A stretch of DNA of 64,000 bases, from UHGV virus genome UHGV-1455077. The stretch is one strand, 5' to 3'. The position numbers were made by a program, and so were the translations under genes. Below the pieces are notes generated by a model, which saw only the letters and a list, made by a program, of their open reading frames with translations, had not been told where the DNA came from and made no database searches. Positions within the stretch are counted from its first letter, which is position 1, and every line of letters starts with the position of its first letter. Positions 1,029-58,881 of this stretch are shown one piece after another. The DNA is from a virus.

Positions 1029-1268
1029 CTAAAAATCAGATTCAATTTCTATAATTTTATGCTGTGAAGGAAATAATTCTATTGATGATAAGAATTTTTC
1101 AGCATTTTCTTTTGAGCGAAATAAACCTTTAATTTGAAAATCTATTTGACAATCTTCAATTATAGAATCATATTCATCATTTTTAAAATGAACATTTTTC
1201 AATGTATCTATGTAAACAATTGCATATAACATTATTTTATTCCTTATTAAGCAGTTTTGTAACGACAA
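1029..1268 (-). CDS. hypothetical protein
   Basis: ORF 79 aa in co-directional small-gene array. Confidence 0.4.
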   Translation of the reverse strand: MSLQNCLIRNKIMLYAIVYIDTLKNVHFKNDEYDSIIEDCQIDFQIKGLFRSKENAEKFLSSIELFPSQHKIIEIESDF

Positions 1269-1534
1269 GAACCAATTTCATAGCCTTTTTTAGCTAACAA
1301 TTCATTAAAATACCATAAATTAGTTCCACCAGTATAATCTTGACGATTTTTTGCTGTCCGAAACATAATAAAATTATTATTTGTCATTGGACAAGTTCTT
1401 ACATCAGCAGTTGAAATGTAGTACAATTGACCATCCAAATTAAAAAATCCTGAACAGTAATAATAGCCAGCTTTTAACTCAATATCTGTTCCACCAATAA
1501 TTTCAATTGCCTTTTTCAAAGAAACTTTTTTCAT
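1247..1534 (-). CDS. hypothetical protein
   Basis: ORF 95 aa; preceded on minus strand by TTGACA-N16-TATATT promoter. Confidence 0.45.
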   Translation of the reverse strand: MKKVSLKKAIEIIGGTDIELKAGYYYCSGFFNLDGQLYYISTADVRTCPMTNNNFIMFRTAKNRQDYTGGTNLWYFNELLAKKGYEIGSCRYKTA

Positions 1535-1948: not shown

Positions 1949-4900
1949 TTATTCAACAATAATATTATTTTTACCACGTAAATAGTCAACAGTAATTAAA
2001 ATTGTTCCAGCAGTTGAAACTTGAATTACCGCAGATGAATCATCAACATTACTTAATGGAATGAATTTATTAATTAAATTCATATTTTCATCTAATAATT
2101 CCAAATACAAAGTATAATCAGAAAAATTATATTCTAATGTATAATCAGTATCATCTGCAATAATTTCAAAAGTTGTTGGATTAACTTTTTGTAAATCTCT
2201 TTCAAAGTTAAAAATAAAGTCATAACCTGTTTCTGGGATAACGAACCAATATGTTGAATTAAATAATTCGTGAGCATCAGATGAAGTATGTGCCAATTTA
2301 CATTCATAATATCTATCGCGATAAGCTACTCTATCACCAACTTTGTATTCAACACTTGTAGCCCAATTTTGGTAATACTTACCATTAATATCTCTTTTTG
2401 TTACATCTAATATATTTCTATTAAATAATAAACGAGCTGAATCTTCATTATTTGATGCAACAATAGAAACATATTTAATATCTTTTAAATCAACAGTTAA
2501 TCCCGTGTCAAAATCTTTTCCTTGTGCATAAACATCTTCCCACATTGATATTTTACCAGTTCTGCCTGCATCTTCATCAAAAGATGATGATGAAATATGA
2601 GCTTGACTACACATATAATAATAAGTTTCTTCAACTCCATCATATGTTTCATTATGTTTTACAATATCACCAACAGCATATGATAAATTTGATTCCCAAG
2701 TTAATGTATCTTGATTAATTTTATTCACAATAGAATAAAATGGTCGTCTAATATTAATTGATATTTGTTTTAAATTAACAAAATCTCCATAAATTCCTTT
2801 ATCAAAGAAAATTAAAGGAATTCTTGTTTTATTAATTGTTTGAATAGCTTGATAATCAATACCTAAACGATTTTCAGTTGATGCTAATTTATTAACATAT
2901 TCAACATTAGGAATAGCATCATTATCTGAAGCAATACGTTCAGCATATGATAATCCTGTATGTGTTGAATCATCAATAACTAAATAATTATCTCTTGTTG
3001 TTTGGAAAGTAATCTTTTGTCCACTCTCATAACTACGTATTGGATTACCATTTAAATCTAATGTTTTATCTAATAATATTGATGGAGTATAATAATTTTC
3101 TAATTTCCAATAATTACTATTATCTGTTGTTATATCAGTTGATGAAGTATGAGCTTGTAAGCATACAAAAATTTTATAACCTATTTCAAATGGTATTTGA
3201 ACATAATCATTAACATTATATTCAACTCCAATTTCCCAATCAGGATAAGATATTGAGTTTCCACCTAATTCTAAATGTCCATAAAACCCTGAACCAATAG
3301 AAACATCACCTATTAAATTTGTTCCTGTAACGGCAACTTTATTATTATTAGTTTCATCGCCTTGTTCAATAGTTAAACCATTTGTTAATGGTTTAACAAC
3401 TTCTTGACCATTAACAATTTCAGTATTATAAAGTCCTTTAACTAAATAATCTCCATTTGGAGTTGCTAAATAATCTAAAAATACCCATTTAGGTTGATAA
3501 AAACCAAATTGATAAATTCTTTTTGAACTCATTTCTGGGTCTAATGTATCAATATTATTTAATTCTGAATTATTAGAAAAACGAGTTGCAACAGTATTTG
3601 TTTCAGTAACTTCTTTATCAAATAAAGTATTAATAAATGTTAAATATTCTGTTCTATTACTTAAAGTAATAATATTTTTTCCCAATGAACAATTAGTAAA
3701 TTTATTACTAATAAATGAACCATTAGATGTTTTTCCAGCATCATTAAAGGCAGTAATATTTAACGCTTGATTTGTAATATCTTTAAATAAACAATTATTA
3801 AATAAAAACCAACTTAAATTATTTGATATACTTACACCATTTTTACCATTTTCAAATATGCAATCAAAAAAATGTATATGTGATGAATCTTGTAATCCTT
3901 GTGTTTTGTAAATATTAACTAATGTTGAACCGTTTCCATTTTGAACGTCTGAATAGCCAACAAATTTAACATTTTTAAACCATACATCAAAAGTTGAACC
4001 TAATAGTAAAACAGTTTCTAATGTACTTTCAGATACATCAAATGTCATATCTTCAACAATAATATTATGAGCAATTTCTCCATTAACACCATACTTATTT
4101 GTTGCTGATAAATCACTTAATACATAATTACTGTCTAATGTTGTTAATAATATATTTAAACCATTTTCATAACTATTAGTTTTAATAATTGTTCTATCAA
4201 TTCCTTCACCTTTTAAATGAATACCAGTTGGCAATGCAATAGGTTTAGAATTAATAATGTATTCTCCCGCAGGAACAAGCATTGTTTTATAACAATTTGG
4301 TTTATTATCTGAACAAAAAACAGTTAAAATTGCATTATAAAAACTATCTGAATCATCAGTTGTTCCATCTCCTAACACACCAAAGTTTTTAACTGAACAA
4401 TAATCATCTAAAACTTCTTGAATAGTTCTATCAGATGGCGGATTAGCATTTTCAGTATAACTTGAATCAGTTGTGATACCAATAATATCTAAAATACCAC
4501 CTTGTTCTTGACCTTCTCCATTTTCTAAAACAAGAGTATCTCCATTACTAATTAATTGTATTTTTCCACCTTCAACAACTTGTGCTTTAACATCTAAATT
4601 TAATGAATTAATAATATCACAAAATCCTTGGGCATCAGTTTCTTTATCAAAAGTTATAGTTTGACCATTGATTACAATTGTTGTTCCAGCAGGAATTGAT
4701 GGATATAATTTAGAACCTGTTACAATAATTGGAAGATTGCTTTCACTACCATTTGAAAAAACATATTTTATCATTTCCAAATTATCACTAAATTCAGTTA
4801 ATACTTGAATATTACCATATGGAAAAGTATTTGATTGAATTCTTTCTTTTAATTTTGGATTATTTGGATTACCAATAAAAAGGCTATTAGTATCAGTTGC

Positions 4901-4993
4901 TAAACCAAATTCACCTTCGTGTAAATCAGTCAATTCACTTTGATTTCCACGTCTATGTTGCATTAATGCTATCTGCTTTGTATTCTTTGCCAT
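1949..4993 (-). CDS. tail spike / tail fibre protein with pectate-lyase-superfamily right-handed beta-helix (putative polysaccharide depolymerase)
   Basis: 1014 aa; motif VKNFGVLGDGTTDDSDSFYNAIL typical of pectate lyase 3 / tailspike beta-helix domains; N-terminal anchor-like region. Confidence 0.65.
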   Translation of the reverse strand: MAKNTKQIALMQHRRGNQSELTDLHEGEFGLATDTNSLFIGNPNNPKLKERIQSNTFPYGNIQVLTEFSDNLEMIKYVFSNGSESNLPIIVTGSKLYPSIPAGTTIVINGQTITFDKETDAQGFCDIINSLNLDVKAQVVEGGKIQLISNGDTLVLENGEGQEQGGILDIIGITTDSSYTENANPPSDRTIQEVLDDYCSVKNFGVLGDGTTDDSDSFYNAILTVFCSDNKPNCYKTMLVPAGEYIINSKPIALPTGIHLKGEGIDRTIIKTNSYENGLNILLTTLDSNYVLSDLSATNKYGVNGEIAHNIIVEDMTFDVSESTLETVLLLGSTFDVWFKNVKFVGYSDVQNGNGSTLVNIYKTQGLQDSSHIHFFDCIFENGKNGVSISNNLSWFLFNNCLFKDITNQALNITAFNDAGKTSNGSFISNKFTNCSLGKNIITLSNRTEYLTFINTLFDKEVTETNTVATRFSNNSELNNIDTLDPEMSSKRIYQFGFYQPKWVFLDYLATPNGDYLVKGLYNTEIVNGQEVVKPLTNGLTIEQGDETNNNKVAVTGTNLIGDVSIGSGFYGHLELGGNSISYPDWEIGVEYNVNDYVQIPFEIGYKIFVCLQAHTSSTDITTDNSNYWKLENYYTPSILLDKTLDLNGNPIRSYESGQKITFQTTRDNYLVIDDSTHTGLSYAERIASDNDAIPNVEYVNKLASTENRLGIDYQAIQTINKTRIPLIFFDKGIYGDFVNLKQISINIRRPFYSIVNKINQDTLTWESNLSYAVGDIVKHNETYDGVEETYYYMCSQAHISSSSFDEDAGRTGKISMWEDVYAQGKDFDTGLTVDLKDIKYVSIVASNNEDSARLLFNRNILDVTKRDINGKYYQNWATSVEYKVGDRVAYRDRYYECKLAHTSSDAHELFNSTYWFVIPETGYDFIFNFERDLQKVNPTTFEIIADDTDYTLEYNFSDYTLYLELLDENMNLINKFIPLSNVDDSSAVIQVSTAGTILITVDYLRGKNNIIVE

Positions 4994-8880: not shown

Positions 8881-10116
8881 GAATTTATAATGTTGAGGAT
8901 ATAATATATAAGGAGCAAATTCATCCGCATATTTTTTTAATTTTTCATCTAAATCTTCATCTTCAATAGCGTTATCAAATTTTTCAATTGATATATATTC
9001 AATACTTAAAGCTCCATCAATTTTACCATCATTATATATTGGAGCTAAAAATATACCTTTAACACCTCGCATATTAAATCTTTCAATAGTATTTGCTCCA
9101 AATTTACTTATATCTGCCGCAATATTACCACTTTTTGACATTATATTTTTAATATTTTTTTCTCTATCATCACTAATCATTTGCACATTTGCAATTTCAC
9201 TTGTTACACCAACAATTGTTGATTCGTAAACTGCTGAATGATAATGTTCTCCATCTTTTGTAAAATATTTAGAAATCATTGCACGAGAACCATTAAATTC
9301 TCTTAAAATTTCATCTAATTTTTCTTTAACAATTAAAGTATAAGTTGGATGAGGTGGTTTTAAAATTGTTTTATAAGATTTACACATTGGTTTTCCATCA
9401 AATAACTCATCTTTTAAATCCCCATTAATAACACCAATCGTTTCACATAAATTATTAAATATTACGTTTAAATAACCATCTATTGTATTAAATGCAAAAT
9501 ACATTTTTGTTGCAGGTGTTGTATCACAACCACGAGAAAATAAATTCTTAACAGAATTAGAAACTAATTTTTCTGTAATATCTGAAAGCATATAAAATTT
9601 ATTTAAAAATTTTACAGGTATCCCTCTTTCTAAAAATTTTCTTTTTTGATTAATGTTATTTTTTGTTAAGCATTCCATTAAATAAGAGCAAGCAACATCA
9701 CAATCTAAATTATCAATATCTATTTCATCAACAAAAGTTTTAAAAGATTCACGAGCATTTTCATATATAATATGAATAACTTCTTTTGCCATTTTTTCTT
9801 TATTTGCCATATAATCTTCATCTTCTGGATGTAAATTATTTTTTAATTTAATTGCATCTATTCCTGTATTTAACCAATAATCTAAATTTCTAAAAATTGG
9901 GTGCTTTAATAAATCTTTTTTGGTATAACTTAAAGAAGTTTTTTTAAAAGTTAATTTATTAATAATAGCTTTAAATAAACCACATATTTGTTCTTTAAAA
10001 TAAACTAAACTAAAAATTGTTAAAAATGCCCAAAAAGAAGGGCCTAAATCTTTAATGTCATTCCATATTAAAAGCCAACCTGAATCGTTTGCTAGTGTTG
10101 GTAAATCTGTCATCAA
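8878..10116 (-). CDS. membrane protein with C-terminal GAF-like domain
   Basis: 412 aa; N-terminal hydrophobic FWAFLTIFSLVYF; C-terminal block resembling GAF sensor fold (judgement from pattern only). Confidence 0.45.
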   Translation of the reverse strand: MMTDLPTLANDSGWLLIWNDIKDLGPSFWAFLTIFSLVYFKEQICGLFKAIINKLTFKKTSLSYTKKDLLKHPIFRNLDYWLNTGIDAIKLKNNLHPEDEDYMANKEKMAKEVIHIIYENARESFKTFVDEIDIDNLDCDVACSYLMECLTKNNINQKRKFLERGIPVKFLNKFYMLSDITEKLVSNSVKNLFSRGCDTTPATKMYFAFNTIDGYLNVIFNNLCETIGVINGDLKDELFDGKPMCKSYKTILKPPHPTYTLIVKEKLDEILREFNGSRAMISKYFTKDGEHYHSAVYESTIVGVTSEIANVQMISDDREKNIKNIMSKSGNIAADISKFGANTIERFNMRGVKGIFLAPIYNDGKIDGALSIEYISIEKFDNAIEDEDLDEKLKKYADEFAPYILYPQHYKF

Positions 10117-10210
10117 CTTATCCTAAAAATTTTCATTACTAGAATTATTTATACATTTTATAAATTCCATAAATATTCTTATTAAAAAGACATTAAACAA
10201 AGGTTAAAAT

Positions 10211-10672
10211 ATGGATAATCAAATTACAAAAAATTTTACTTTATCAGAATTAACATATTCTGATACTGCAAAAGCTAAAAAATTAGATAATACTCCAACA
10301 GAAATTGAATATAATAATATGAAAAATTTATGTGAAAATGTATTGCAACCTTTAAGAGATGCATTAGGAAAACCAATAAGAGTTAATTCTTGTTATCGTG
10401 GAAAACAACTTAATGAAGCTGTCGGTGGTTCAAAAACTTCTCAACATTGTAAAGGTCAAGCTGCTGATATTGAAATTATTGGTATGAGTAATTATGATTT
10501 AGCTTGCTATATTCGTGATAATTTTGATTTTGACCAATTGATTCTTGAATTTACTGATAATATTAAGAATGATATTAATGCTGGTTGGGTTCACGTATCT
10601 TATGTTTCACCAAGTGTTAATCGTAAACAATGTTTAACAATTAATAAGTCTGGAACAAAATTAGGATTTTAA
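10211..10672 (+). CDS. peptidase M15 (D-Ala-D-Ala carboxypeptidase-like) endolysin
   Basis: SCYRGKQLNEAVGGSKTSQHCKGQAADIEI and GWVHVSY zinc-binding H/D/H motifs of M15/VanY-type peptidoglycan peptidases. Confidence 0.7.
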   Translation: MDNQITKNFTLSELTYSDTAKAKKLDNTPTEIEYNNMKNLCENVLQPLRDALGKPIRVNSCYRGKQLNEAVGGSKTSQHCKGQAADIEIIGMSNYDLACYIRDNFDFDQLILEFTDNIKNDINAGWVHVSYVSPSVNRKQCLTINKSGTKLGF

Positions 10673-11058
10673 TACCCACACGCATACCAATCAATCCCAA
10701 ATACAGCATTATTATATAATCTTATATAAGCACTTGATTTTGTTTTTGCCGTAAAATTTACTGGATTATTTGCATAATATTGTTCATCTGTTGAAGAAGT
10801 TGCATTGGAAGTATTTCCAACGATAATATAGTTTGTATTTGAAAAATTTTTTATAAAATAGATATAATTATGAACAAGTTTATGCCCACCTTGTTCAATC
10901 CAGCCATCTGACCAAACACGATACCATTGACTTCCATCTTCTGATTGACCTGTTTCAATAACATATTTCATTGAATTAAGTTTATTAGTTATTTCTTCAA
11001 GTTTATCAAGTAATCCATTAATTCGTTCCATATCTATTTTACTTACATCAGTCATCAA
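10669..11058 (-). CDS. hypothetical protein
   Basis: ORF 129 aa. Confidence 0.4.
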   Translation of the reverse strand: MMTDVSKIDMERINGLLDKLEEITNKLNSMKYVIETGQSEDGSQWYRVWSDGWIEQGGHKLVHNYIYFIKNFSNTNYIIVGNTSNATSSTDEQYYANNPVNFTAKTKSSAYIRLYNNAVFGIDWYACGY

Positions 11059-11100
11059 TTTATCCTTTATTTGTATTTAATAAATACAAATAAACCATTA

Positions 11101-11127
11101 AAAAACCGCCTATATAGGCGGTTTTTT
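11101..11127. terminator. bidirectional rho-independent terminator
   Basis: aaaaaccgcctatataggcggtttttt. Confidence 0.75.
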
Positions 11128-11145
11128 ATAAATATTTTCAACTGA

Positions 11146-12780
11146 TTACATTCCCATTTGTGATGGTTTCATTGCCGACATTAACTTTAAATTAGTTTCT
11201 GTATCATCAATAATTAATCCTTCAACAGTAAGCAATGAACCAGCAATAGATGCTCCGTTTTCCAATGCACAACGAACAACTTTCGTTGCATCAAGAATAC
11301 CTGCTTCAATTAAATCACAGAATTTATCATTACGAGCATCATAACCATATGAATAAGTTTCATTATCTTGAACCTTTTCTACAATTACTTCACCAGTTTT
11401 TCCTGCATTTTCAGCAATTTTTTTCATTGGAGCAGATAAAGAATTAAGAACAATACCATATCCTGTCCATTCATCATCTGTTATAGCAAAATCAAGATTA
11501 TTACTAATTTCTTGATATGCTCTTACAAGAGAAACACCACCACCTGGTAAAATACCTTCTTCAAGTGCCGCTCTCGTTGCACATACAGCATCTTCAACAC
11601 GGTCTTTCTTTTCTTTAACTTCGGTTTCTGTTGCACCACCGACTTTAATAACAGCAACGCCTTTAGTCAATTTTGCAAGTCTTTCACGAAGTTTTTCTTT
11701 ATCATATGAAGATTCAGTATTTTCAATTTCAGCAATTAATTGTTCAGCTCTTTCAGAAACAGCATTTTTATCACCGTGTCCACCAATAATAACTGTTTCA
11801 GTTGGTGAAATACGAATTTTATCACAAGAACCTAATGATTCTATTTTAACATCTTCTAATTTATATCCCATTTGTGTTGAGATAAATTCACCACCTGTTA
11901 AAATTGCAATATCTTCCATTTGAAATTTACGAATATCACCAAATGAAGGAGCTTTAACTGCACAAACTTTTAAACCTGCTTTCATTCTATTAATTACTAA
12001 TGTTGACAAAGGTTCATCAGCCATTTCATCTGAAATAAGAACTAATGGTTGACCAATTTGCATAACATCTTCAAGCAATGGCAAAATAGATTGAATTGTA
12101 TTAATTTTACCATCATATAAAAGAATCAATGGATTATCATATTCAACTAATTGTCTTTCTGCATTAGTCATAAAATATGGAGAAAGATAACCTTGGTCAA
12201 ATTGTAAGCCATCAACAACTTCCAATTCAGTTTTTAATCCTTTTGCTTCCTCAACCGTGACAACACCACGTTCACCAACAATTTCAATAGCTTTAGCAAT
12301 AAAATCTCCAATTTCAGCATCGCCGTTTGCAGAAATAGTTGCTAATTGTCTAATTTCTTCATTAGTTTCAACTTTTTTAGAATGAGATTTTAATACTTCA
12401 ACAACATCTTTAACAGCTATATTAATACCTTGCTGAATTTCAGTTGATTTACGACCTTTTGAAATCCATTTTAAGCCTTCTTCAGCAATTGCAGATGCAA
12501 TAATACAAGTAGCTGTTGTTCCATCACCTGCATCTCTATTTGTTTTTTCAGAAGCCTGAACAATTAATTTTGCTCCTTCACCTTCTGCATCCATTAAAGT
12601 AATAGATTTTGCAACTGTTACACCATCTTTAGTAACTTTTGGTGTTCCCCAAGACTGTTGAATTGCAATTGTTCTACCACCAGGGCCTGATGTTTGTGCA
12701 ACAACATCAGAAACTGTTTTTAATCCTTTATATAGCTCTGTACGAGCTTCATCGCCTTTAATAACTTTTTTAATTGGCAT
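11146..12780 (-). CDS. groEL: chaperonin GroEL (phage-encoded, no C-terminal GGM repeat tail)
   Basis: 544 aa; hallmark GDGTTTATV-type motif ([12 protein letters not shown]) and LPGGGV; ends KPSQMGM instead of (GGM)n. Confidence 0.9.
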
Positions 12781-12840
12781 ATTTTTAACTCCTTATTTTA
12801 ACTTTTCTATTATATTATAAATTATTTTATAAATGCAATA

Positions 12841-13143
12841 TTAATGTAAAATACCTAAAATATCAGTTTCTCTTAAAATGGTTTTTTCTTCTCCATTTAA
12901 TTTGATAACTTGACCAGCAAATTTACCAAATAAAACTCTATCACCAACTTTAACAGTCATTGGCATTGTTTTACCTGTTTCTTCATTATATAAACCATTT
13001 CCACAAGCAATTACAACACCTGTTGATGGTTTTTCCTTGGCATTATCAGGAATAATAATACCTCGGTCAGATACTCCTTTTTCTTCATCTTTTTCAACAA
13101 CCACAAAATTAAATAATGGTTGAATTTCTAATTTATTTTCCAT
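12841..13143 (-). CDS. groES: co-chaperonin GroES
   Basis: 100 aa; GroES pattern ...IIIPDNAKEKPSTGVVIACGNG...; immediately upstream of groEL in operon order. Confidence 0.85.
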   Translation of the reverse strand: MENKLEIQPLFNFVVVEKDEEKGVSDRGIIIPDNAKEKPSTGVVIACGNGLYNEETGKTMPMTVKVGDRVLFGKFAGQVIKLNGEEKTILRETDILGILH

Positions 13144-13157
13144 AATATTTTCTCCAT

Positions 13158-13190
13158 AAAAAAATAAGCTAACTTGTTTGTTAGCTTATT
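13158..13190 (-). terminator. rho-independent terminator between 13228..13782 and groES
   Basis: ataagctaacttgtttgttagcttat followed by T-run on minus strand. Confidence 0.6.
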
Positions 13191-13227
13191 ATAACGGAGA
13201 ATGAAAATGATTGTCAAAAATAAAAAA

Positions 13228-13782
13228 TTATTTTTTTATTTCTTTACCCATAGTTGATAAATCAAAATCTTTTGAAGGGTCTTTCATAAAAGTTTGATTA
13301 AATAAATTTGTTTCATCTGTCATATTTTTATAATTAATTAAAACTTTTTCAAAATATGTAACCAATTCTTGTCTTGTTGGAAACTTTTTATATTTTTTAA
13401 AAAATCTTGATAATTTTGGTAAAATAAGTTCTTGTTGAAATGGTATATAAATATCGTTTGTTTGAACATCATTTCCGTCTGTTTCTAAATAGAACATAGG
13501 GATAACAAACTCATATCCTAATAAAATTTTCTTAAATCTTGAATTATCAATAGTTCCACGAGTACCAATGCCAAATGCAATTGTAATTCTTCCTGTTCCA
13601 AAAACTTCTTTAATTACTTCATTAATGAAATTTAGTTTTTTAAAAGAAATATCTTTTGAAAGTTGTTTATAATTTCTGTTAGCCTTAATCGCTGTTCTAA
13701 TTTTTAGTTTATTAAAAATTTTCGAACCATTTTGTTTTTTATTCCATACATTTTTAACTATAAGCATAATATTTTCTTTCAA
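13228..13782 (-). CDS. hypothetical protein
   Basis: ORF 184 aa. Confidence 0.45.
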   Translation of the reverse strand: MKENIMLIVKNVWNKKQNGSKIFNKLKIRTAIKANRNYKQLSKDISFKKLNFINEVIKEVFGTGRITIAFGIGTRGTIDNSRFKKILLGYEFVIPMFYLETDGNDVQTNDIYIPFQQELILPKLSRFFKKYKKFPTRQELVTYFEKVLINYKNMTDETNLFNQTFMKDPSKDFDLSTMGKEIKK

Positions 13783-13845
13783 AAAAAATTAGCACCATTG
13801 CTGATGCTAATTTATTATTATATTTTTTAGTTGTCAAGAACTTTT

Positions 13846-15657
13846 TTAGTTCCATTGTAAATGCCAATAGAATGTTGTTCCTGTACTATCATTTGTAACT
13901 CTGGCAATTGAAAACTTTTTAGTTGATTCAAAATAATTCATTACTTGTTGCATTTCATCTTGTAATACATCATTTTCAATTAATTGTTTCCAAACCTGAT
14001 AATATTTTTTAGACATTGTTGGAGCTTCCATTACATAATTAACTTCAGGAACTTCTGTATATGTACCCCCATTTATTAATTTTGTTTCTAAAATTTTATC
14101 ATTAACAATTCTAACTGTTGCATTTGCATCGCCATCATTAAAGACAACACTTGTTGGATACATATAACCATCACCATAATTATCCATAACAATATATTTA
14201 ATTGTCCATTCTAAATCTGTATCTACTGGTATACGACCTAATAAATAATCATTTAAATTCCATACTTTATTAACAAGTGTCCAATGACCTGCAATTTTAA
14301 CATAAGTTGTATATGCTTCTAATTCTCCAGAATATGCTACAACATCGTGGTCTTCACCCCAATCATCATAAAGTTTAATTTGGTCAAATCTATATTCATT
14401 TTCTGTTTCAACCCAAGACCCATTAATTTTAATTCTATAACGACCTTCATCCCAAATGAATATATCTAAATTTTCACCAAATACATCTGGTGGTAAATTA
14501 TCCCAATCATATTCAACTACAATTTCTTGCCAGATACGATGGCAACATTTATACACTTTATGAGGTATACGATTTATAATATTTCCATCTTCATCATATA
14601 CTAATTCATTGTAATAGCCAACATCATAATCTAAACCATCTTCTGCGGTTGGTTTTCTATCTCCAAAATTCCAAATATTATGTGATAAATTCCATCCACA
14701 ATTTGTTTTTACATAATTTTTTCCAAATACATTATAACAAACTGTTCCTTCAACTCCAAAATTAAATGGTAATTTAAAAGTTTTATAATCATATATTGTT
14801 GAAACTTCAACCCAACCGTCAGATGTTTTTACATATATTTTATCTTGCTCTTTTGTATAAGTATCACTAATCATACCAAATGCTTCTGGTGGTAAAGAAT
14901 TTATATCATAAATTGTTCCAATAGGAAACCAATCAGTTTCACCTGGATATATACTATTACCATTTAAATCTTTAACTTGTTGTTCATTATCTCTTGTAAT
15001 TTGTAAATCTGAAATTAAACCATAATCTGAATCTATATCTAACCAAACAGAATCTCCTGGTTTTATTGTTTCATCATTCCAATATTTCATATTTTTATAA
15101 ACTAATTTAGCCGTATCAAAAATAGTTGTATATTCTCCACGATTAACAATTTCTAAATTAATAATATCTCCGTTATCATTAATTTCTGAAACTCTAAATT
15201 CTAATGGAATAGAATTATTATCATCTTTAACTTGTAAAACTTCTCCAACTCTAAAATAGTTTTTTGGATATATTTTACCAGCAGAATCACCTGCATTTGC
15301 AAAATTTTCAAAAATATTAGTTTCAGAATTACCCCCATCAATAATTTCTTCAAATAATTCAGTTTCAGAATTACCACCATCTACATATTTAATTAATGGT
15401 GAATTATTTAAATCTTCATTTTCATAATCTTTATGAATAGTAACTTTTGATAATTCCATTATACAATGAGATTTTGCTTCTTTAATTGGGTCTGCAAATT
15501 CACGAGCATCTGTCATTACTGTATTATATACATCACATTCAAATTGATTTTCGTCAACCGCTTGCATAATATATTCTTCAATATCATTAATCTCTTTTAA
15601 AATACGAGATTTATTTCGGGCATATTGTTTAGCTTCAGTTGCATTATAAAAATCCAT
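13846..15657 (-). CDS. hypothetical large Trp/Tyr-rich protein (possible virion protein)
   Basis: 603 aa; late-type motif AATAAATAAT 34 nt upstream. Confidence 0.45.
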   Translation of the reverse strand: MDFYNATEAKQYARNKSRILKEINDIEEYIMQAVDENQFECDVYNTVMTDAREFADPIKEAKSHCIMELSKVTIHKDYENEDLNNSPLIKYVDGGNSETELFEEIIDGGNSETNIFENFANAGDSAGKIYPKNYFRVGEVLQVKDDNNSIPLEFRVSEINDNGDIINLEIVNRGEYTTIFDTAKLVYKNMKYWNDETIKPGDSVWLDIDSDYGLISDLQITRDNEQQVKDLNGNSIYPGETDWFPIGTIYDINSLPPEAFGMISDTYTKEQDKIYVKTSDGWVEVSTIYDYKTFKLPFNFGVEGTVCYNVFGKNYVKTNCGWNLSHNIWNFGDRKPTAEDGLDYDVGYYNELVYDEDGNIINRIPHKVYKCCHRIWQEIVVEYDWDNLPPDVFGENLDIFIWDEGRYRIKINGSWVETENEYRFDQIKLYDDWGEDHDVVAYSGELEAYTTYVKIAGHWTLVNKVWNLNDYLLGRIPVDTDLEWTIKYIVMDNYGDGYMYPTSVVFNDGDANATVRIVNDKILETKLINGGTYTEVPEVNYVMEAPTMSKKYYQVWKQLIENDVLQDEMQQVMNYFESTKKFSIARVTNDSTGTTFYWHLQWN

Positions 15658-15706
15658 TGCTTTATTCCTTATATCATAAACTTTATAATATTATTTATTG
15701 ATATAA

Positions 15707-15737
15707 AAAAACCGAGAAGTTATAACTTCTCGGTTTT
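15707..15737. terminator. bidirectional rho-independent terminator
   Basis: aaaaccgagaagttataacttctcggtttt. Confidence 0.75.
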
Positions 15738-15739
15738 GA

Positions 15740-16288
15740 TTATTTTTTAAATGCCTTTAATGGAATATCAATTTTAATTTGTTTTCCTTCAATTTGACAT
15801 AAAACCGAAGATTCATTTAATGTTAAACAAGGCTTGATTTCTTTAACAACATAATTAACATTTGAAGCTCTTGCCCCTTTATGAATAAAATAGTAGTTAT
15901 CATTTTCATTTAAAACAATATTTTTAGCTGGGATAATATCACCAACATTTATTGTTTCTGAAATATTAATAACTTCTGTATATTCTTTAGATTCAGAAGT
16001 CATTTTTTCTCCAGCTTGGTCAACAGCAGTATCGTGAATTTCATCTTGTGTATCATCTTCTTCATTTTGTTTTTGACCATCAATAATAATTTTATCGTCA
16101 ATAATTTCAGTTACTGCTTTATTATTTGATAATACGTCTTCTAAACCTTGTTCATCAAGCTCAACTCTATATTTTTTATTTAATAAAAGTAAAAAGTTAA
16201 CAGTTGATAATACTTTTACTCCGTGTGAACGTAAAAGATAAATTAAGCTATTAATATTTTGAATTATTCTATCTTCAAAATTAGCCAC
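15740..16288 (-). CDS. hypothetical protein
   Basis: ORF 182 aa. Confidence 0.4.
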   Translation of the reverse strand: MANFEDRIIQNINSLIYLLRSHGVKVLSTVNFLLLLNKKYRVELDEQGLEDVLSNNKAVTEIIDDKIIIDGQKQNEEDDTQDEIHDTAVDQAGEKMTSESKEYTEVINISETINVGDIIPAKNIVLNENDNYYFIHKGARASNVNYVVKEIKPCLTLNESSVLCQIEGKQIKIDIPLKAFKK

Positions 16289-16869: not shown

Positions 16870-17871
16870 ATGAATGATATTTTAGAAACAATATATAACT
16901 TATTACCATCAGATAAAAAACAACGGAATAATGGGTGGATTTTTTTTAATTGCCCATCTTGTTATCATACAGAAAATCCAGATACTAAACATCGTGGAAA
17001 TATTTTATTTACAGATGATGGTTTTGTTTATCAATGTTTTAATTGTAAATTTAAATGTGGATTTACATTAGGTCAATATCTTTCTAAAGATACTACTCAA
17101 TGGTTAAAAGATTTAGGAATTTCAACAAAAGATTTAAATGATTTAAGATTAAAAATTAGAGAATATAATGAAGCAAATTCTGAAAAGCCAAAAGATTCTA
17201 AAATTATTATTAAAAAAAGAGAAATTAAGCAAATTCCTACTGGATATAAATCTATAATTAAATCTTTAAATGAAGGTGAAAATTCATATACTTTTATGGA
17301 AGTATTGAAATATATCAATAATAGAAATCCATATCTATTGGAATGGACAGATTTATTATGGTGTCCAAAACAATTTAATTTTTTAATACCTTGTTATGAA
17401 TATGAAGAAATTGTTGGTTATTCATTAAGAAAATTAACTGATGAAACAAATAACAAATATATTCATTATATACCAACAGGATATATTTATAATTACGATA
17501 ATTTATTAAAGCCACGCAAATATGAAATCGTTTGTGAAGGGCAAACAGATGCAATTGCAATTAATGGTGTATCAATATTAAGTAATACTTTTACTCCAGA
17601 AAGATTAAAAAGAATTTTACCATTCGTTAATGATAAAGAAATTATATTATTACCTGATAGAGATAAAAGTGGCAATAAAATGGTTCAACAATTATTAGAA
17701 GAAAACTTACCTTTTAGTGTTGCTTTTCCAAATTGGGAAAGAGGAATAAAAGATGCTGAACAAGCCGCTAAAAAATATGGAAGATTATATACAATTTACA
17801 GTATATTAAATTCTAAGGAGAATAATAAAGAATTAATTAAAATGAAATCATTAAAATGGTTTAGTATATAA
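16870..17871 (+). CDS. DNA primase, T4 gp61-like (zinc ribbon + Toprim)
   Basis: FFNCPSCYH...CFNCKFKCGF zinc-binding; Toprim acidic motifs IVCEGQTDAIA and LPDRDKSG. Confidence 0.75.
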   Translation: MNDILETIYNLLPSDKKQRNNGWIFFNCPSCYHTENPDTKHRGNILFTDDGFVYQCFNCKFKCGFTLGQYLSKDTTQWLKDLGISTKDLNDLRLKIREYNEANSEKPKDSKIIIKKREIKQIPTGYKSIIKSLNEGENSYTFMEVLKYINNRNPYLLEWTDLLWCPKQFNFLIPCYEYEEIVGYSLRKLTDETNNKYIHYIPTGYIYNYDNLLKPRKYEIVCEGQTDAIAINGVSILSNTFTPERLKRILPFVNDKEIILLPDRDKSGNKMVQQLLEENLPFSVAFPNWERGIKDAEQAAKKYGRLYTIYSILNSKENNKELIKMKSLKWFSI

Positions 17872-23554: not shown

Positions 23555-25942
23555 ATGAATCAATTATATAAACTTTTTAATGTAAAATCAGATAGAGAAT
23601 ATAGAAAAGTTATGGAAAATATGGATTTATCTCCATATGATATGTTTAAAATTGAAGATATTGCAAACAACGGACAAGATTTAACTGAACAACGTCAATT
23701 AGTTTTAAGTTTGCTTGCATTGACAACTAATGATAATTATAAATTTTGCAAAAATCAATTTAATAAAAACAATACTCCACGTAAATTAAAAGAAAATGTT
23801 ACTGTTCCACAAGAACAATCATTAACATTAAATGACATTATGGAACTTAATGATATAATTGATTTAGTTGCAAAAAAATGCCATAATAATAAGATGGCAT
23901 ATCAACAATTATATCAAGTTGTTGCAAAATCAACAAGTAAAAATATTGCTAACGCATTTTTTAATATGGCATTTAACGCTCAAAATACAGATGACAATTT
24001 AAAATTTAATACAGATTTAGTTGTTGATAATCAAAATGTTGCTCAAGCAATTTATCAAATTAAATCATTAATTAAATCAGCACTTAATTCAATTCAAGAA
24101 CCAAAAAAAGAAGAAAAAATTAATGAATCTGTTTTAAATGAAGATAACTTTCCTGAAGCAGTAAAAAATATATATGCTTTATTTCACAGCAATAATAATG
24201 TTGATGATTTAAATAAAATTATTTCAATGTTGGATAATAAAATTAATGTTTCTCGTTCAACAAAAGAAAAGAATTTTTTTAATTCTATTAAAACAAATGT
24301 AATTGCAAAATTAAATAAATTAAAAAAAGATAATGTTACAGAATGTTTAGCAAGTAATGTTGTTTCTACTGCTGTTGAAGAAGATACATTTAATGGCTTA
24401 TTAGATGATTTAGCAAAGCCAACTATTATTAATATAACTGTTAATAAAGAAACAGGAAATATTGATGATGTTCAACCAGTTTTAAATGATACACCAAATA
24501 TGGATTTAATTAATGGTGTTCAAGCTGTTCAGCCTTTAACATTATCACCAACTGCAATTGATGCTCCAATTTTACAAAAACCAGACCAAGCATCTGTTGT
24601 TTCTGCATTATCAGCATTATCTTCACATTTAAATGATACTAAATCAGATTCTCGTGAAAATAATTTAGAATGTTTACAAACAATCAATACATTATTAAAT
24701 CAAATATCATCATATTTTAATAGTTTACTTTCAGAAAGCAAAATGAAAATTAACAATGATGGCGTAATGGAACTTAATGAAGCAGATATTTTTGAACATA
24801 ATGCAAAACCTGATTTCACATATACTTTTCAAACACCAGATAATCACTATATTGAATTTAGTGGATATAAATTAAATGATAATTCATATGATATTGATTT
24901 AATGGATGAAGATTATAATTATATTACAACTTCTGAATTTACAAAAAATGGAGCTTCGGATAATAATATTAAAAATAATATTATTAAAATGAAACAAAAT
25001 TGGAATTTAATTGAAAAAGCATTAATAAACAAAATTAATACTTATAATGAAGATTTTCAACTTTCAGAAGATGTTGATTCAAAAAAACTTTTCAAAAATG
25101 ATGATGCAATAGCTCGTTTACAAAATGAAATTATTCGTCTTAAACAAAAATTAAAAGAACCAACATCTGATAAAAAATACTATGGTGTTAAATTATCATA
25201 TGCTGAAACTAAATTAAGAAAATTATTAGCCAAAAATGATGAAATAATGAATGAAGAAACTGTTTTTGACCATTCTTGGTATGAAAATGATGATGGAGAT
25301 TTTCCAAAAAGAACAAAAGAAGGTGTAATCATTGAAGATGAAGAAGTTGATGAAACTTGTTCTGCTGGAGCTACTGGGGCAGGAAATGTTGCAATGACAT
25401 CTCTTCCGATTGGTAAAAAAAGAAAATTATCAATAGGAGAATCTTTATTATTAAAATTTATTAAAGAAGGTCGTGATTGTACATCAATTTTTGATGGTCA
25501 TCATTATATGTTAAAAAATGGCTATCTTTATAAAGATGCTCAATTAGTAAAAACAAAAAACTTAAATGAAATGGTTGAATTTATTCAAGGAAATGTTGAT
25601 TTACCAATATTAGATGGGTTTTTACCAATGCATTTAGATATGATGTTAGAAGAAGATGTTAATAATCCAAATGAACTTTCAGATATGGATTTAACTCCTG
25701 AACAACGTCAATTAAAACAAAAGCAAGAACAAGATTTAGATACTCGTATTGATTCGGGGACAGATACAAAAGTATCTGTTGAAAATACAGATGATAATAA
25801 GATTGAATTAAATCAAGAATTAGTTGGCGTTGATGATACAGATATTAACAATAAACAATATGTTGTAAAAAATCCATCAACAAATAAAATTAAAATTGTT
25901 AAATCAAGTCAAATTAAAACTACTGATGACCAAGGAATTTAA
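23555..25942 (+). CDS. large hypothetical protein
   Basis: 795 aa, no recognisable motif. Confidence 0.5.
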   Translation: MNQLYKLFNVKSDREYRKVMENMDLSPYDMFKIEDIANNGQDLTEQRQLVLSLLALTTNDNYKFCKNQFNKNNTPRKLKENVTVPQEQSLTLNDIMELNDIIDLVAKKCHNNKMAYQQLYQVVAKSTSKNIANAFFNMAFNAQNTDDNLKFNTDLVVDNQNVAQAIYQIKSLIKSALNSIQEPKKEEKINESVLNEDNFPEAVKNIYALFHSNNNVDDLNKIISMLDNKINVSRSTKEKNFFNSIKTNVIAKLNKLKKDNVTECLASNVVSTAVEEDTFNGLLDDLAKPTIINITVNKETGNIDDVQPVLNDTPNMDLINGVQAVQPLTLSPTAIDAPILQKPDQASVVSALSALSSHLNDTKSDSRENNLECLQTINTLLNQISSYFNSLLSESKMKINNDGVMELNEADIFEHNAKPDFTYTFQTPDNHYIEFSGYKLNDNSYDIDLMDEDYNYITTSEFTKNGASDNNIKNNIIKMKQNWNLIEKALINKINTYNEDFQLSEDVDSKKLFKNDDAIARLQNEIIRLKQKLKEPTSDKKYYGVKLSYAETKLRKLLAKNDEIMNEETVFDHSWYENDDGDFPKRTKEGVIIEDEEVDETCSAGATGAGNVAMTSLPIGKKRKLSIGESLLLKFIKEGRDCTSIFDGHHYMLKNGYLYKDAQLVKTKNLNEMVEFIQGNVDLPILDGFLPMHLDMMLEEDVNNPNELSDMDLTPEQRQLKQKQEQDLDTRIDSGTDTKVSVENTDDNKIELNQELVGVDDTDINNKQYVVKNPSTNKIKIVKSSQIKTTDDQGI

Positions 25943-33516: not shown

Positions 33517-33546
33517 AAAAATGGTACGCATTGCGTACCATTTTTT
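33514..33546. terminator. bidirectional rho-independent terminator
   Basis: aaaaaaatggtacgcattgcgtaccatttttt perfect 10-bp stem. Confidence 0.8.
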
Positions 33547-34117
33547 AGAATTCATCTAATTGTGTTTCCCAATACTCTTTCGAAAACCAATCATTATCAT
33601 CGTATTCTTTATTTTTACGATTTTTCTTTGCATTTTCTTCCAATTGTCTAATACTTGGAATATATGGTTTATGTATTAAATGCATATGTGATTCCTCAAG
33701 TGTTTTACCACCTTTTTTACTATTACATTCTCTACAAGCTGTAACAATATTATCCCAACAAGTTTTACCGCCTTTACAGCGAGGATGTACGTGGTCAAAT
33801 GTTAAATCATCTGCTTTAAATCTTTTACCACAATATTGGCATACATAATCATCACGAAGATAAACATTTCTTCGAGAAAATTTTGGAGTATGATTAACAT
33901 TTACATACTTTTTTAAAACAACTATTTTAGGCAGTTTCATTTCTTTATTTTGAATAATAATAGAATCATCATATTCTTTAACAACTGATAATCTTCCCTT
34001 TAATAAGGATTTAATAACTTTTTTCATACTATTCAAAGATAATGGGTATCTACTTAAAGGCTGATAATCTCCATTAAGAATTAAAACTGGTCTATTCATT
34101 ATACTTTTATTTGTCAT
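33545..34117 (-). CDS. HNH endonuclease
   Basis: 190 aa; YVCQYCGKRF...FDHVHPRCKGGKTCWDNIVTACRECNSKKG HNH/zinc-finger core; overlaps upstream AAA gene by 11 nt. Confidence 0.75.
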   Translation of the reverse strand: MTNKSIMNRPVLILNGDYQPLSRYPLSLNSMKKVIKSLLKGRLSVVKEYDDSIIIQNKEMKLPKIVVLKKYVNVNHTPKFSRRNVYLRDDYVCQYCGKRFKADDLTFDHVHPRCKGGKTCWDNIVTACRECNSKKGGKTLEESHMHLIHKPYIPSIRQLEENAKKNRKNKEYDDNDWFSKEYWETQLDEF

Positions 34118-35294
34118 CGTTAATTACTTTTCTAAATTGGTCAATTGTTAATATATTCCATTTGACTTGTCTAATTAATTCTTGTAATGTTGCAGGATTA
34201 ATAAACTCCTTTTTAAATAAATTGTCAAGTCCTAATTTATCAAAAATCATTTTATTTGCCATTTCATTATTTAAATCGGTTAATTCTATTTTATAATCCA
34301 TACGACCATCACGTAAAAAGGCTTCATCTAATTGTTCAATATGATTTGTTGTGAAGAAACAAATTATTCCTTCTGGAGTATATAAACCATCTAATACATT
34401 TAATATATCTGATAATGTTATTTTATTATCTCTTGATGGATTAATAATATCACCCGTCATTTCATTATCAACTCTATTATTAACAGCCGTATCAGCACAG
34501 TCAATATCTTCAAATACAAATATTTTTCTATCAGGTGATGAAATTTGCCATATTAAATCATCAATATCTCTAATAGTTTTTAAACTAATCATTTTAATTT
34601 GAAAATTTAATTCACTTGCTAATGCAAATATCAAAGAACTTTTTCCTGTACCAGGTACACCATATAATAAATAATTTCTTTTATATAAAATGTTATTATT
34701 AATATAATCATTTTTTGATTTTAAGAAATGTTTTATATCATTTAAAATCTTATTTCCAATGTTATCATTTGTATATACACTTGTTAAAGGTCTTTTTGTT
34801 CTTTTAATTTCATTATATCCTTGAATAACAGTTATCTTATTATCATATGCTTCAACTGTATCCTTTAAAGATTCTTCTAATTTTTTAATAAATTTCTTTT
34901 TATTTGCAAAATATACCCTTAAAAATATTTTTAAAGTTACACCATTTGCATCAGATTCCCACGATTTTGAAAAATATACCAATTTTTTAAACATCCATAG
35001 CCAAGTTACTCCATAACCTTCACCAATTTCTTGTTTATTATTAATTTCATATGTATTTTGAAATAAATGTGTTTGATTTTTAATTAATAATTCTAAATTT
35101 TTATTTGGAACACTTTCATAATTGTATATTTTAGCATTATATGAAATTGAAAATGAAATTAATGATATAAGTTTTGTATAAACCCAACCAAAAATTACTT
35201 TACTATGCATAACAAACATTGCAACAATACCGCCACTATACATAGTTGCTAATGCAGGATTTGATTGTACAATTTCTTTAAAAAACTCTAACAT
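34107..35294 (-). CDS. BCS1-like AAA+ ATPase with N-terminal transmembrane segment
   Basis: 395 aa; N-terminal hydrophobic PALATMYSGGIVAMFVMHS; Walker A LLYGVPGTGKSS, Walker B IFVFEDIDCA, second region FFTTNHIEQLDEAFLRDGRMD closely parallels mitochondrial BCS1 AAA module. Confidence 0.75.
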   Translation of the reverse strand: MLEFFKEIVQSNPALATMYSGGIVAMFVMHSKVIFGWVYTKLISLISFSISYNAKIYNYESVPNKNLELLIKNQTHLFQNTYEINNKQEIGEGYGVTWLWMFKKLVYFSKSWESDANGVTLKIFLRVYFANKKKFIKKLEESLKDTVEAYDNKITVIQGYNEIKRTKRPLTSVYTNDNIGNKILNDIKHFLKSKNDYINNNILYKRNYLLYGVPGTGKSSLIFALASELNFQIKMISLKTIRDIDDLIWQISSPDRKIFVFEDIDCADTAVNNRVDNEMTGDIINPSRDNKITLSDILNVLDGLYTPEGIICFFTTNHIEQLDEAFLRDGRMDYKIELTDLNNEMANKMIFDKLGLDNLFKKEFINPATLQELIRQVKWNILTIDQFRKVINDDK

Positions 35295-35362: not shown

Positions 35363-35396
35363 AAAAAAGAGGTTGAATTTCTTCAACCTCTTTTTT
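35363..35396 (-). terminator. rho-independent terminator after capsid gene
   Basis: aaaaaaagaggttgaatttcttcaacctctttttt. Confidence 0.8.
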
Positions 35397-35414: not shown

Positions 35415-36620
35415 TTAGATGAAACGTAAGTTAGCAACTTTAATTTTAGCTAAGAAGTCGCCAGCGTTACCTAAAGAGTTAGCTGGGTTAGTTAAAGCGA
35501 AGAAGCCATAACGTGTGCTTAAAGCCATAACGTGTTCGAATGTATTAGGGTCTAAGATAGTACCTGATGACATTACTGGAATGTATGGGCAATAATAAGC
35601 TGCGGCATCAATTTCATCTGAACCTTTATAACCGATTAAAATATCATCATCTTTAGCATATGTGTTTACATAAACTTTTAATGTGTTATTTAATGTACCA
35701 ACAAATTTATTATTAGTTGGAGCTTCAAATGTACCTTCTGTTGTTCTTACGAACTGTGAAGCAGTAGCTGATTGTAAAACAGATAATACTGTGTGTGAAA
35801 CTACTGACCAGTTAGCAGAAGCTTTTCTGATTTTACGAGCAATTTCGTTTGAGTATCTGTTAATCATAACAGCCAATGCGGCGTGTTCGTCAACAACTGA
35901 TGTTGCAACACCTGAAATTCTGTTTTGGTCATAAGTTGCAACTGGTAAACCAGCAATAGCTTGTAATTTACCTAAAATTTCTTGGTCAATATCTAATACG
36001 ATTTCTTGAGCTAAAGCAGAAGTTAATTCTTGTTCAATATTAGCACCGTATTGAGATTGAGCATCTTGCATAGCTTCTAATGTAAATCTAGCTTTTAATT
36101 TACGAGAGCCAGCTTTAACATCTTCTTTTACGAATTCAATGTTAATATCGTTACCACCAGTACCTTCTAATACAGCAGTATCAGCCGCACCTGGGTTAAC
36201 CATATCTTCATTACCAGAATACCAAGCACCAACTAAGAATGGTGATAATGCTTCTTGACCAGCGATGATACCTGTACCATCAACAGGAGAATTTGTAGCA
36301 TATCTAATTCTCATAGTTGTAATTGTACCAGAAGGGCCTGATAATGGTTGAACACCTACTAATTCGTGTGCCATAACTGTTGGCATAATACGTTTAATTA
36401 AAGGCATCATAACTTTGTTAATAATTGCCACATTTGCGGCAACTGTTGAACCTTGGGTTGCGTGTTCTGCTAAGAATTGTCTACGTACATTTTCTAATAC
36501 AGATTCTGTAATACGTCTACGAGAAGCACCCTTAATGTCAGAAACCATACCTTTTTTCAATCTATTCCAAGCTGATGGACTTTCTAACAATAACACGCTC
36601 TTTTCAATATTTGTTGTCAT
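35415..36620 (-). CDS. major capsid protein, T4 gp23-like
   Basis: 401 aa; N-terminal propeptide-like segment then VAANVAIINKVMMPLIKRIMPTVMAHELVGVQPLSGPSG pattern of gp23 family; locally elevated GC; gene order protease-scaffold-MCP. Confidence 0.85.
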   Translation of the reverse strand: MTTNIEKSVLLLESPSAWNRLKKGMVSDIKGASRRRITESVLENVRRQFLAEHATQGSTVAANVAIINKVMMPLIKRIMPTVMAHELVGVQPLSGPSGTITTMRIRYATNSPVDGTGIIAGQEALSPFLVGAWYSGNEDMVNPGAADTAVLEGTGGNDINIEFVKEDVKAGSRKLKARFTLEAMQDAQSQYGANIEQELTSALAQEIVLDIDQEILGKLQAIAGLPVATYDQNRISGVATSVVDEHAALAVMINRYSNEIARKIRKASANWSVVSHTVLSVLQSATASQFVRTTEGTFEAPTNNKFVGTLNNTLKVYVNTYAKDDDILIGYKGSDEIDAAAYYCPYIPVMSSGTILDPNTFEHVMALSTRYGFFALTNPANSLGNAGDFLAKIKVANLRFI

Positions 36621-36643
36621 TATTTTTTCTCCTAAAAATTACT

Positions 36644-37903: not shown

Positions 37904-37925
37904 TGTAATGGTCTCCTTTTAACCT

Positions 37926-38606: not shown

Positions 38607-38621
38607 TCTTACAAATCCTTA

Positions 38622-40365: not shown

Positions 40366-40683
40366 ATGAAAAAACATATGATTATTAAAAAGAAAGATAA
40401 TGAAAAACTTTATCAAGAGATTTTCAAACGTGTTAAAAATCAGTATGATTGGGCAATGAAACAATCTGCTGAATGTCATTTTCCTTGGATGCCGTATTTT
40501 AAACAATACTTCATTTCAAATATGGAAAAACCCAAATTCCATTCTGAAAAAACGAAAGATAAATTATATATTCGTGCATTGCGTGAATTAAAAATTCTTC
40601 CCAATGAAGGAGAACCTATTCCTGAATATATGTATGATGCTTATGAAACCAAATATGGTGAAAAATTAAAAGAGAGTATGTAA
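40366..40683 (+). CDS. hypothetical protein
   Basis: ORF 105 aa with AAGGAG RBS. Confidence 0.4.
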   Translation: MKKHMIIKKKDNEKLYQEIFKRVKNQYDWAMKQSAECHFPWMPYFKQYFISNMEKPKFHSEKTKDKLYIRALRELKILPNEGEPIPEYMYDAYETKYGEKLKESM

Positions 40684-47722: not shown

Positions 47723-47784
47723 AATTTCTCCTTTAAAAACTAATTTATTTTTATTTATAACATATAAAATATGAAAAAACAAAT

Positions 47785-47811
47785 AAAAAAGGAGTTTTAA
47801 ACTCCTTTTTT
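47785..47811 (-). terminator. rho-independent terminator after giant gene
   Basis: aaaaaaggagttttaaactcctttttt. Confidence 0.75.
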
Positions 47812-58758: not shown

Positions 58759-58802
58759 TTGATTCCTTACTTTTTAATATAATTATTTATTGATTGATTT
58801 CT

Positions 58803-58856: not shown

Positions 58857-58881
58857 TTATTGATAACCAAAGGTTAAATTT

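Follow-up and report, generated by a model that had tools for sequence, protein, structure and literature searches.

Bacteriophage T4 supplies only the lid of the chaperonin that folds its capsid protein and borrows GroEL from its host. Can a phage bring the whole machine instead, and which proteins would it fold? The question is raised by two adjacent genes, groES and groEL, in a 64,000-nucleotide (nt) stretch of the UHGV virus genome UHGV-1455077 (hereafter the window, meaning the whole stretch analysed). Our analysis showed that they encode a complete pair, GroES and GroEL both being the phage's own. We think it fairly probable, from the sequence features described below, that this pair would be expressed early and form a cage that folds phage proteins, with the 43.4-kDa Gp23-type major capsid protein as its likeliest main client.

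An earlier note on this DNA had read the locus as a complete GroES and GroEL pair with groES directly upstream of groEL, and it was right on both points. The two genes lie on the minus strand, where groES (12841..13143; 100 amino acids (aa), 11.0 kDa) occupies the upstream side of a 60-nt spacer that separates it from groEL (11146..12780; 544 aa, 58.7 kDa). Aligned to hidden Markov models (HMMs), both proteins exceed the curated cut-offs. GroEL scores 653.6 bits on the NCBIfam equivalog TIGR02348 (cut-off 582.1), covering model positions 2-525 of 526, and 241 bits on Pfam Cpn60_TCP1 (PF00118), while GroES scores 94.2 bits on Pfam Cpn10 (PF00166; cut-off 21.1) and 102.3 bits on NF001531 (cut-off 96). 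The corresponding PHROG families are phrog_5725, 'chaperonin groEL' (508 bits), and phrog_3188, 'co-chaperonin GroES'. The best matches of GroEL in the Protein Data Bank (PDB) are canonical bacterial and mitochondrial Cpn60 chains (GroEL/Hsp60; 440-516 bits), and those of GroES are Cpn10/GroES chains only. GroEL is 44% and GroES 40% identical to the E. coli proteins, which the pair resembles in domain order, ATPase residues, apical hydrophobic residues, mobile loop, roof and the order of the two genes.

The co-chaperonin is a bona fide GroES and not a gp31-like form, as had been proposed in the same note. T4 gp31 (our reference sequence is 100% identical to record X17657) is a divergent lid without a roof hairpin and with a longer mobile loop, whereas the window GroES has an ordinary loop and roof. 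In a multiple alignment, its mobile loop (13048..13065, minus strand), a glycine followed by three hydrophobic residues (G-I-I-I), is of normal length and reads R-G-I-I-I-P, most clade relatives having G-G-(I/L)-(I/V)-(I/L). The roof hairpin (12958..12996, minus strand) is one residue longer than that of E. coli and is kept in the clade relatives. The window protein has no BLASTP similarity to gp31 (E=11), and gp31 is not among its PDB matches at E<=1. Furthermore, gp31 falls in phrog_931 ('head morphogenesis') rather than phrog_3188 and reaches 30.8 bits on the Cpn10 model, against the 94.2 bits of the window protein. In one relative (L007, 68% identical), the GroES call (3604..3987) is 127 aa long with an N-terminal extension of ~31 aa that the others lack; the start may have been called wrongly, or the extension may be real.

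The functional residues of GroEL (E. coli numbering) were counted over 107 sequences scored as members of its clade, including P0107, which was later shown to be cellular, and compared with 26 GroELs from outside the clade. The window protein keeps T30, G32, P33, D52, D87, G88, T89, T90, I150, S151 and the catalytic D398, the last within the motif VEDAV (11584..11598, minus strand), together with G414-416, I493 and D495. D52, D87, T89, D398, G414-416 and D495 are invariant across the 107 sequences, and T30, P33, G88, T90, I150 and I493 vary conservatively, T90 being kept in 106. The apical residues that bind GroES and substrate, which include the GYLSPYF stretch (12172..12192, minus strand), are identical at eight of nine positions (Y199, S201, Y203, F204, L234, L237, L259 and V263), with V264 replaced by isoleucine. 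S201, Y203, F204, L237 and L259 are invariant in the clade-scored set, Y199 is found in 94 of the 107, and L234 and V263 show conservative variation only. The hallmark ATP-site motif announced by the earlier note survives in part: a check for loss of equatorial ATP-binding residues found all the catalytic residues in place, but the ATP loop (residues 85-90; 12511..12528, minus strand) reads GDGTTA and not the strict GDGTTT (T91A). Of the 107 clade-scored sequences, 92 have A or N at position 91, where all 26 comparison GroELs have T; the function of the loop that is mediated by its backbone may survive this change.

Operon signals and the likely clients

Within the 84 nt that separate groES from the gene upstream of it, a putative sigma-70-type promoter (13188..13217, minus strand) matches the consensus TTGACA-N18-TATAAT at 12 of 12 positions. 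The window has no other perfect match, 0.49 being expected by chance. The relatives L033-L035, of 82% identity, have an identical promoter before groES, and in relatives of 53-54% identity a perfect promoter stands at the head of a somewhat longer operon with groES and groEL in it. Shine-Dalgarno sequences, read from the minus strand, stand 8 nt before the ATG of groES (GGAG, 13152..13155) and 8 nt before that of groEL (AAGGAG, 12789..12794, within the spacer). A symmetric 13-base-pair hairpin with A-run and T-run flanks, which can be read on both strands (11099..11128), begins 18 nt past the groEL stop codon and is predicted to be a strong bidirectional intrinsic terminator closing the operon. 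Another hairpin with a T-run, a terminator-like site that overlaps the -10 box of the promoter (13163..13190, minus strand), is probably the terminator of the upstream gene 13228..13782. No CIRCE operator was found with up to three mismatches, and the window operon differs from that of E. coli in having neither CIRCE nor a heat-shock operator.

The late promoters of T4 have the consensus TATAAATA. A motif resembling it, the heptamer ATAAATA, often found as CAATAAATA, is present 30-50 nt upstream of 21 of the 56 open reading frame (ORF) starts in the window, where 1.4 would be expected. The ORFs that it precedes are mainly structural and lysis genes (the portal gene, the head of the protease-scaffold-capsid operon, tail genes and the endolysin gene; examples are 40984..42774(-), 38622..39665(-), 55972..58758(-), 23555..25942(+) and 10211..10672(+)), and groES is not among them. 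This distribution suggests T4-style late transcription, and we infer that the chaperonin operon is probably early and driven by the host sigma-70 factor, and the capsid operon late.

In a second class of promoters in the window, TTGACA stands some 45-75 nt ahead of the start codon and is accompanied by a TATAAT-like -10 box; this class is found, for example, upstream of 1247..1534(-), 13228..13782(-), 12841..13143(-), which is groES itself, 16870..17871(+), 34107..35294(-) and 40366..40683(+). Strong Shine-Dalgarno sites also occur throughout the window. Together, these two features argue for a host with classical sigma-70 and Shine-Dalgarno usage and would point away from Bacteroidota, in contrast to the hint given by the nearest cultured-phage GroELs, which belong to Bacteroidota phages.

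The gp23-like capsid gene reported by the earlier note (35415..36620, minus strand) does encode a true member of the Gp23 family (PF07068, 279.7 bits; phrog_138; 401 aa). The gene closes a compact operon (38622..35415) with the late-type ATAAATA motif at its head and a terminator at 35396..35363. From the conservation of the ATPase core and apical surface of GroEL and of the mobile loop and roof of GroES, a lidded, ATP-driven folding cage would be expected. Transcribed from a sigma-70-type promoter and not from the late motif, this cage would be in place ahead of the late flood of virion proteins. Its main client would be the abundant 43-kDa capsid protein, other virion proteins would also be served, and capsid production would be freed from the supply or compatibility of host GroEL and GroES. 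The pair could also act as a matched helper for the expression of Gp23-type capsid proteins. T4 gp31 is likewise a phage-supplied chaperonin component beside a Gp23-type capsid protein, with the same presumed capsid-folding purpose, and the folding of T4 gp23 strictly needs GroEL and gp31 (van der Vies, 1994, as cited in Marine et al., 2017; PMC5649160).

Chaperonin genes recur around the Gp23 capsid family, since Escherichia phage EJP2 and Erwinia phage Hallingskeid, two Rak2-like capsid relatives, carry GroES alone, Vibrio phage 2.275.O carries GroEL, and Flavobacterium phage vB_FspM_immuto (NC_055915) carries both. None of the Rak2/GAP32/CBB-like phages examined has both genes, nor does 2.275.O, and among 224 cultured jumbo phages HSP60 and HSP10 were found in different sets (Iyer et al., 2021; PMC7824862). 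Phage immuto shares with the window the adjacent groES and groEL genes in the same order, a Gp23 capsid, a gp20 portal and an S77 protease, its capsid protein being homologous to that of the window (32% identity, E 2e-28). It differs in having a 160-kb myovirus genome and an aquatic Bacteroidota host, the window phage being ~289 kb, and its GroEL, 44% identical to that of the window, keeps GDGTTT, R197 and K327. The immuto capsid protein (L037 32897..34507, 536 aa) aligns with the 401 aa of the window protein in two blocks; about 150 immuto residues (127-286) lie between them, and the window capsid appears to be without that insertion region.

The novelty that the earlier note implied for a phage pair folding a capsid protein does not hold. 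Viral GroES>GroEL and GroEL>GroES operons, in clades distinct from cellular GroEL, were described by Marine et al. (2017), who found GroES on 40% of viral GroEL-bearing contigs and proposed that the full complex is typical of viruses with larger genomes and may fold the major capsid protein (PMC5649160). The RefSeq annotation of immuto, moreover, already lists GroES, GroEL and 'Major capsid protein Gp23'. The general picture is thus unchanged, phage groESL operons and a proposed role in capsid folding having been published. The virioplankton pairs are marine and mostly on short contigs, and many of their GroES proteins have the mobile-loop glycine replaced or the roof lost, whereas in the window clade the roof is present in all and both loop glycines in most, the window's own loop having R-G. 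In one virioplankton arrangement a short ORF intervenes between the two genes, as in Cellulophaga phage phi38:1 (PMC5649160). The same is seen in L008 (3590..3988) and L009 (3671..3988), the most distant members of the window clade, where an ORF of 105-132 aa without a Pfam family lies between groES and groEL. No paper on this jumbo-phage lineage or its groESL was found in a literature of incomplete coverage. What is new here is a large, uncharacterised clade of jumbo phages with both chaperonin genes, an exception to the Hsp60-or-Hsp10 pattern, and a clade-specific set of substitutions at allosteric and inter-ring positions of GroEL.

Several observations weigh against a cage dedicated to the capsid. 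Bacteroides phage DAC16 (complete, 178 kb) has adjacent groES and groEL genes like the window, but a tblastn search of its whole genome detected no Gp23, gp20 or S77, and we rejected a strict link between the pair and Gp23 on these grounds. The marine GroEL>GroES contigs are podovirus-like (Marine et al., 2017; PMC5649160). A 43-kDa capsid protein would fit the ordinary host cage and needs no enlarged one, which leaves no size argument for a dedicated machine, and the GroES roof is an ordinary one. As for timing, a consensus promoter match is not proof of use.

The most serious rival is that the operon serves as a general booster of folding capacity, an early supply of extra chaperonin that would keep the proteome of the infected cell soluble without any privileged client, on the premise that a jumbo phage has hundreds of proteins to produce and turns off the expression of host genes. 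The presence of the pair in DAC16 and on the podovirus-like contigs is in agreement with this idea, as is the argument that reliance on chaperonins is greater in larger genomes (Marine et al., 2017; PMC5649160). So are the early-type promoter, the position of the operon ~22 kb from the capsid gene and outside the head module, and the ordinary GroES roof, with which the cage would not be enlarged as it is with gp31. On the other hand, it sits less easily with the recurrence of chaperonin genes with this capsid family and with the GroEL dependence of gp23-type proteins, the best documented link between a phage and a chaperonin. We consider a booster without a privileged client possible but distinctly the less probable account; it overlaps with the capsid-client reading, and the two are not mutually exclusive. 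Capsid folding independent of the host, as suggested in the earlier note, is plausible, but with DAC16 in view it would not be specific to Gp23 capsids.

Allosteric and inter-ring positions of GroEL

A further point against a GroEL-like cycle comes from GroEL itself. E. coli GroEL has the GDGTTT loop, two allosteric salt bridges (R197-E386 and D83-K327) and GGM repeats, none of which is found in the window protein. In addition to T91A, the latter has the changes L31S, R197Q, D83R, K327P, A109K, R452K, E461T and S463E, while keeping E386, K105 and V464. Most of these are clade-wide shifts (L31 to S/A/C, R197 to Q, D83 to R/K, K327 to P, A109 to K, E461 to T/S and S463 to E/D) at positions that are near-invariant in the 26 comparison GroELs. 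The GGM repeat tail has been lost in the clade, which has a short Met/Gln-rich tail instead, and in the window protein a 2-aa insertion adjoins the E434 inter-ring contact. Both salt bridges and several inter-ring contacts are thus missing from the window GroEL. In E. coli GroEL, the tense state is destabilised when these salt bridges are removed. Both bridges are important for GroEL allostery and are also absent from the lidless chaperonin of phage EL (PMC7185714). Judged from the alignment, the substitutions leave a GroEL-like cycle in doubt.

It is possible that the protein is a group I chaperonin that still has its lid but has been stripped of allostery, which would have kept GroES encapsulation and lost the tense-state bridges, the inter-ring contacts and the GGM tail. 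The co-retained GroES and the intact apical surface are signs that lid-dependent encapsulation persists. A chaperonin of this kind could carry out fast, non-cooperative and possibly single-ring folding of the flood of capsid protein. We advance this combined proposal tentatively and think it rather less likely than not. If it were true, the stripped chaperonin would be nature's parallel to the 'relaxed-state' mutants engineered in GroEL, and in evolution it would stand between the cellular protein and the lidless chaperonins of the phage EL type. The clade offers more than 100 natural variants of a GroES-dependent GroEL without the textbook allosteric switches, which could be of use to chaperonin biochemists.

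A more radical rewiring, in which the protein would not be a classical double-ring, cooperative, encapsulating GroEL at all but a single-ring machine, a constitutively 'relaxed' fast-cycling one or a holdase like EL gp146, seems improbable to us. It would account for the loss of R197 (the partner of E386), D83-K327, A109, E461, S463, the third P-loop threonine and the GGM tail from positions otherwise so well conserved, for the insertion next to E434, and for the likeness to the EL chaperonin, from which the same two bridges are missing (PMC7185714). However, a co-evolving GroES with intact loop and roof stands beside groEL throughout the clade and the apical GroES-binding residues are conserved, which makes it more likely that substrates are still enclosed under a lid. 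Pseudomonas phage EL gp146 and its phiKZ-like counterparts are, like the window protein, Hsp60 homologues of jumbo phages without D83-K327 and R197-E386, and the EL chaperonin is very divergent, with no co-chaperonin, no GroES binding and no encapsulation (PMC7185714). In contrast to this lidless type, the window GroEL has an adjacent, conserved GroES and 44% identity to its E. coli homologue, and no EL-type chain is among its best 60 PDB matches.

Ancestry of the pair

Among 5.8 billion proteins, a search recovered about 106 cluster representatives that are 51-82% identical to the window GroEL, many of them on contigs of 200-390 kb, the next rank being cellular GroELs of ~50-52%. The identical GroEL was read, in the same phage gene neighbourhood, on 23 independent contigs from metagenomes (it is indexed in 49 collection blocks), and relatives of 82% identity lie on two viral contigs of IMG/VR (203 and 282 kb), where the groES-groEL order is kept. 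On four more diverged contigs (143-292 kb; GroEL 53-68%), groES immediately precedes groEL or is separated from it by one small ORF. In a peptide-pattern scan, which is not exhaustive, of 185,579 species of bacteria and archaea, each represented by a single genome, no GroEL exceeded 52% identity.

The earlier note had left it to phylogeny whether the pair branches with EL-like phage chaperonins or was acquired from a host, and the outcome speaks against a recent acquisition. We built a neighbour-joining tree from 32 clade representatives, the 26 comparison GroELs (E. coli, 12 from genome bins and 13 metagenome proteins) and three cultured-phage GroELs. The jumbo-phage clade (106 sequences) is monophyletic in 100 of 100 bootstraps, on a stem of 0.24 substitutions per site, and its members are at most 53% identical to any outside sequence. 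Its grouping with the GroELs of the Bacteroidota phages DAC16 and immuto is weak (48 of 100 bootstraps). The ratio of nonsynonymous to synonymous substitution rates (dN/dS), measured against an 82% relative, is ~0.26 for groEL and 0.12 for groES, indicating purifying selection, and the GC content at third codon positions (GC3) is 9.7% and 8.9%, respectively, compared to 10.6% for the portal gene.

Because of this phylogeny, the conserved synteny, the codon composition and the many independent contigs, the pair is an old, selected component of the phage lineage and neither a recent host capture nor an assembly artefact. The idea of a recently captured or chimeric groESL operon, a passenger without a phage role, might appeal to the canonical HMM scores of the two proteins and to the bacterial look of some groESL 'phage' records, but it is effectively refuted by the 23 contigs with their constant phage neighbours, the monophyletic clade on its long stem with no cellular match above ~53%, a GC3 like that of phage genes, dN/dS well below 1 and the missing CIRCE operator. 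A clade of ~200-390-kb phages, previously uncharacterised and, to go by its sample names, probably from gut metagenomes, thus joins the viruses known to carry a full chaperonin.

As for the databases, 269 records of the phage collection match the window GroEL and 39 match GroES. Organism names and record sizes suggest that some of the 'phage' records with groES and groEL are really bacterial, whether contigs or fragments; examples are Acinetobacter phage MD-2021a, small Listeria and Enterococcus pieces and two ~500-kb records from Salmonella enterica. Because these are included, counts of 'phages with GroEL' in the collection are inflated.

Phage genome and neighbouring genes

The source of the window is an uncultured jumbo phage of ~289 kb with a T4-type head: the identical GroEL is found, with the same neighbours, on scaffolds of 288.5 and 289.4 kb. 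The GC content of the window is 26%, and a megablast search of positions 9000..16000 against 50,697 phage records gave no match. The sample names of the scaffolds resemble human-gut cohort codes, from which we infer that the phage may be of human-gut origin. Besides the capsid gene, the window has an S77 prohead protease of gp21 type (37926..38606; PF03420, 88.9 bits), a T4-type gp20 portal (40984..42774, minus strand; PF07230, 249.8 bits) and a T4 baseplate protein (46784..47782; PF12322, 28.7 bits), and it also encodes a tail tube-like protein, a DnaB-like helicase, a primase and an M15 endolysin. The term 'T4-like genome' used in the earlier note is therefore apt for the head and baseplate module and misleading for the phage as a whole. 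The nearest relatives of the capsid protein, at ~53% identity, are those of 340-380-kb Rak2/GAP32/CBB-like jumbo phages and of Vibrio phage 2.275.O, none of which resembles the window at the nucleotide level, and there is no close kinship with T4 or the Straboviridae.

The neighbours of the operon (13228..13782, 13846..15657 and 10669..11058) have no informative Pfam or PHROG family, and the same is true of the small ORFs beside groES in the relatives. Neither the window neighbours nor these small ORFs include a small heat-shock protein like that found upstream of marine viral groESL. The 179-aa ORF upstream was considered as a co-chaperone and dropped, a homologue search having given just two real relatives. 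No tRNA genes were found in the window.

Directly past the capsid terminator, with a TTGACA-TG-TATTAT promoter of its own, lies a gene for an AAA+ ATPase (34107..35294, minus strand; PF00004, 57.9 bits), followed with an 11-nt overlap by that of an HNH endonuclease (33545..34117, minus strand). By analogy with the AAA+ chaperones listed in jumbo phages (Iyer et al., 2021; PMC7824862), this ATPase might be a further assembly chaperone. A 2454-aa ORF adjoining the baseplate gene (47810..55174, minus strand), with no Pfam family at E<=0.001, presumably encodes a giant tail or baseplate protein. A probable tail fibre or depolymerase of 1014 aa is encoded by 1949..4993 (minus strand); it has an N-terminus like that of Mtd, a beta-helix of pectate-lyase type and a carbohydrate-binding module of the CBM5/12 family. 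Giant proteins bearing CBM5/12 are also encoded near groESL in L008 and L009. Finally, the intergenic region 58759..58881, between the divergent genes 55972..58758(-) and 58882..59409(+), contains two tandem copies of the 20-nt unit TTCTTTTGTATATATATTTA at ~58806..58848.

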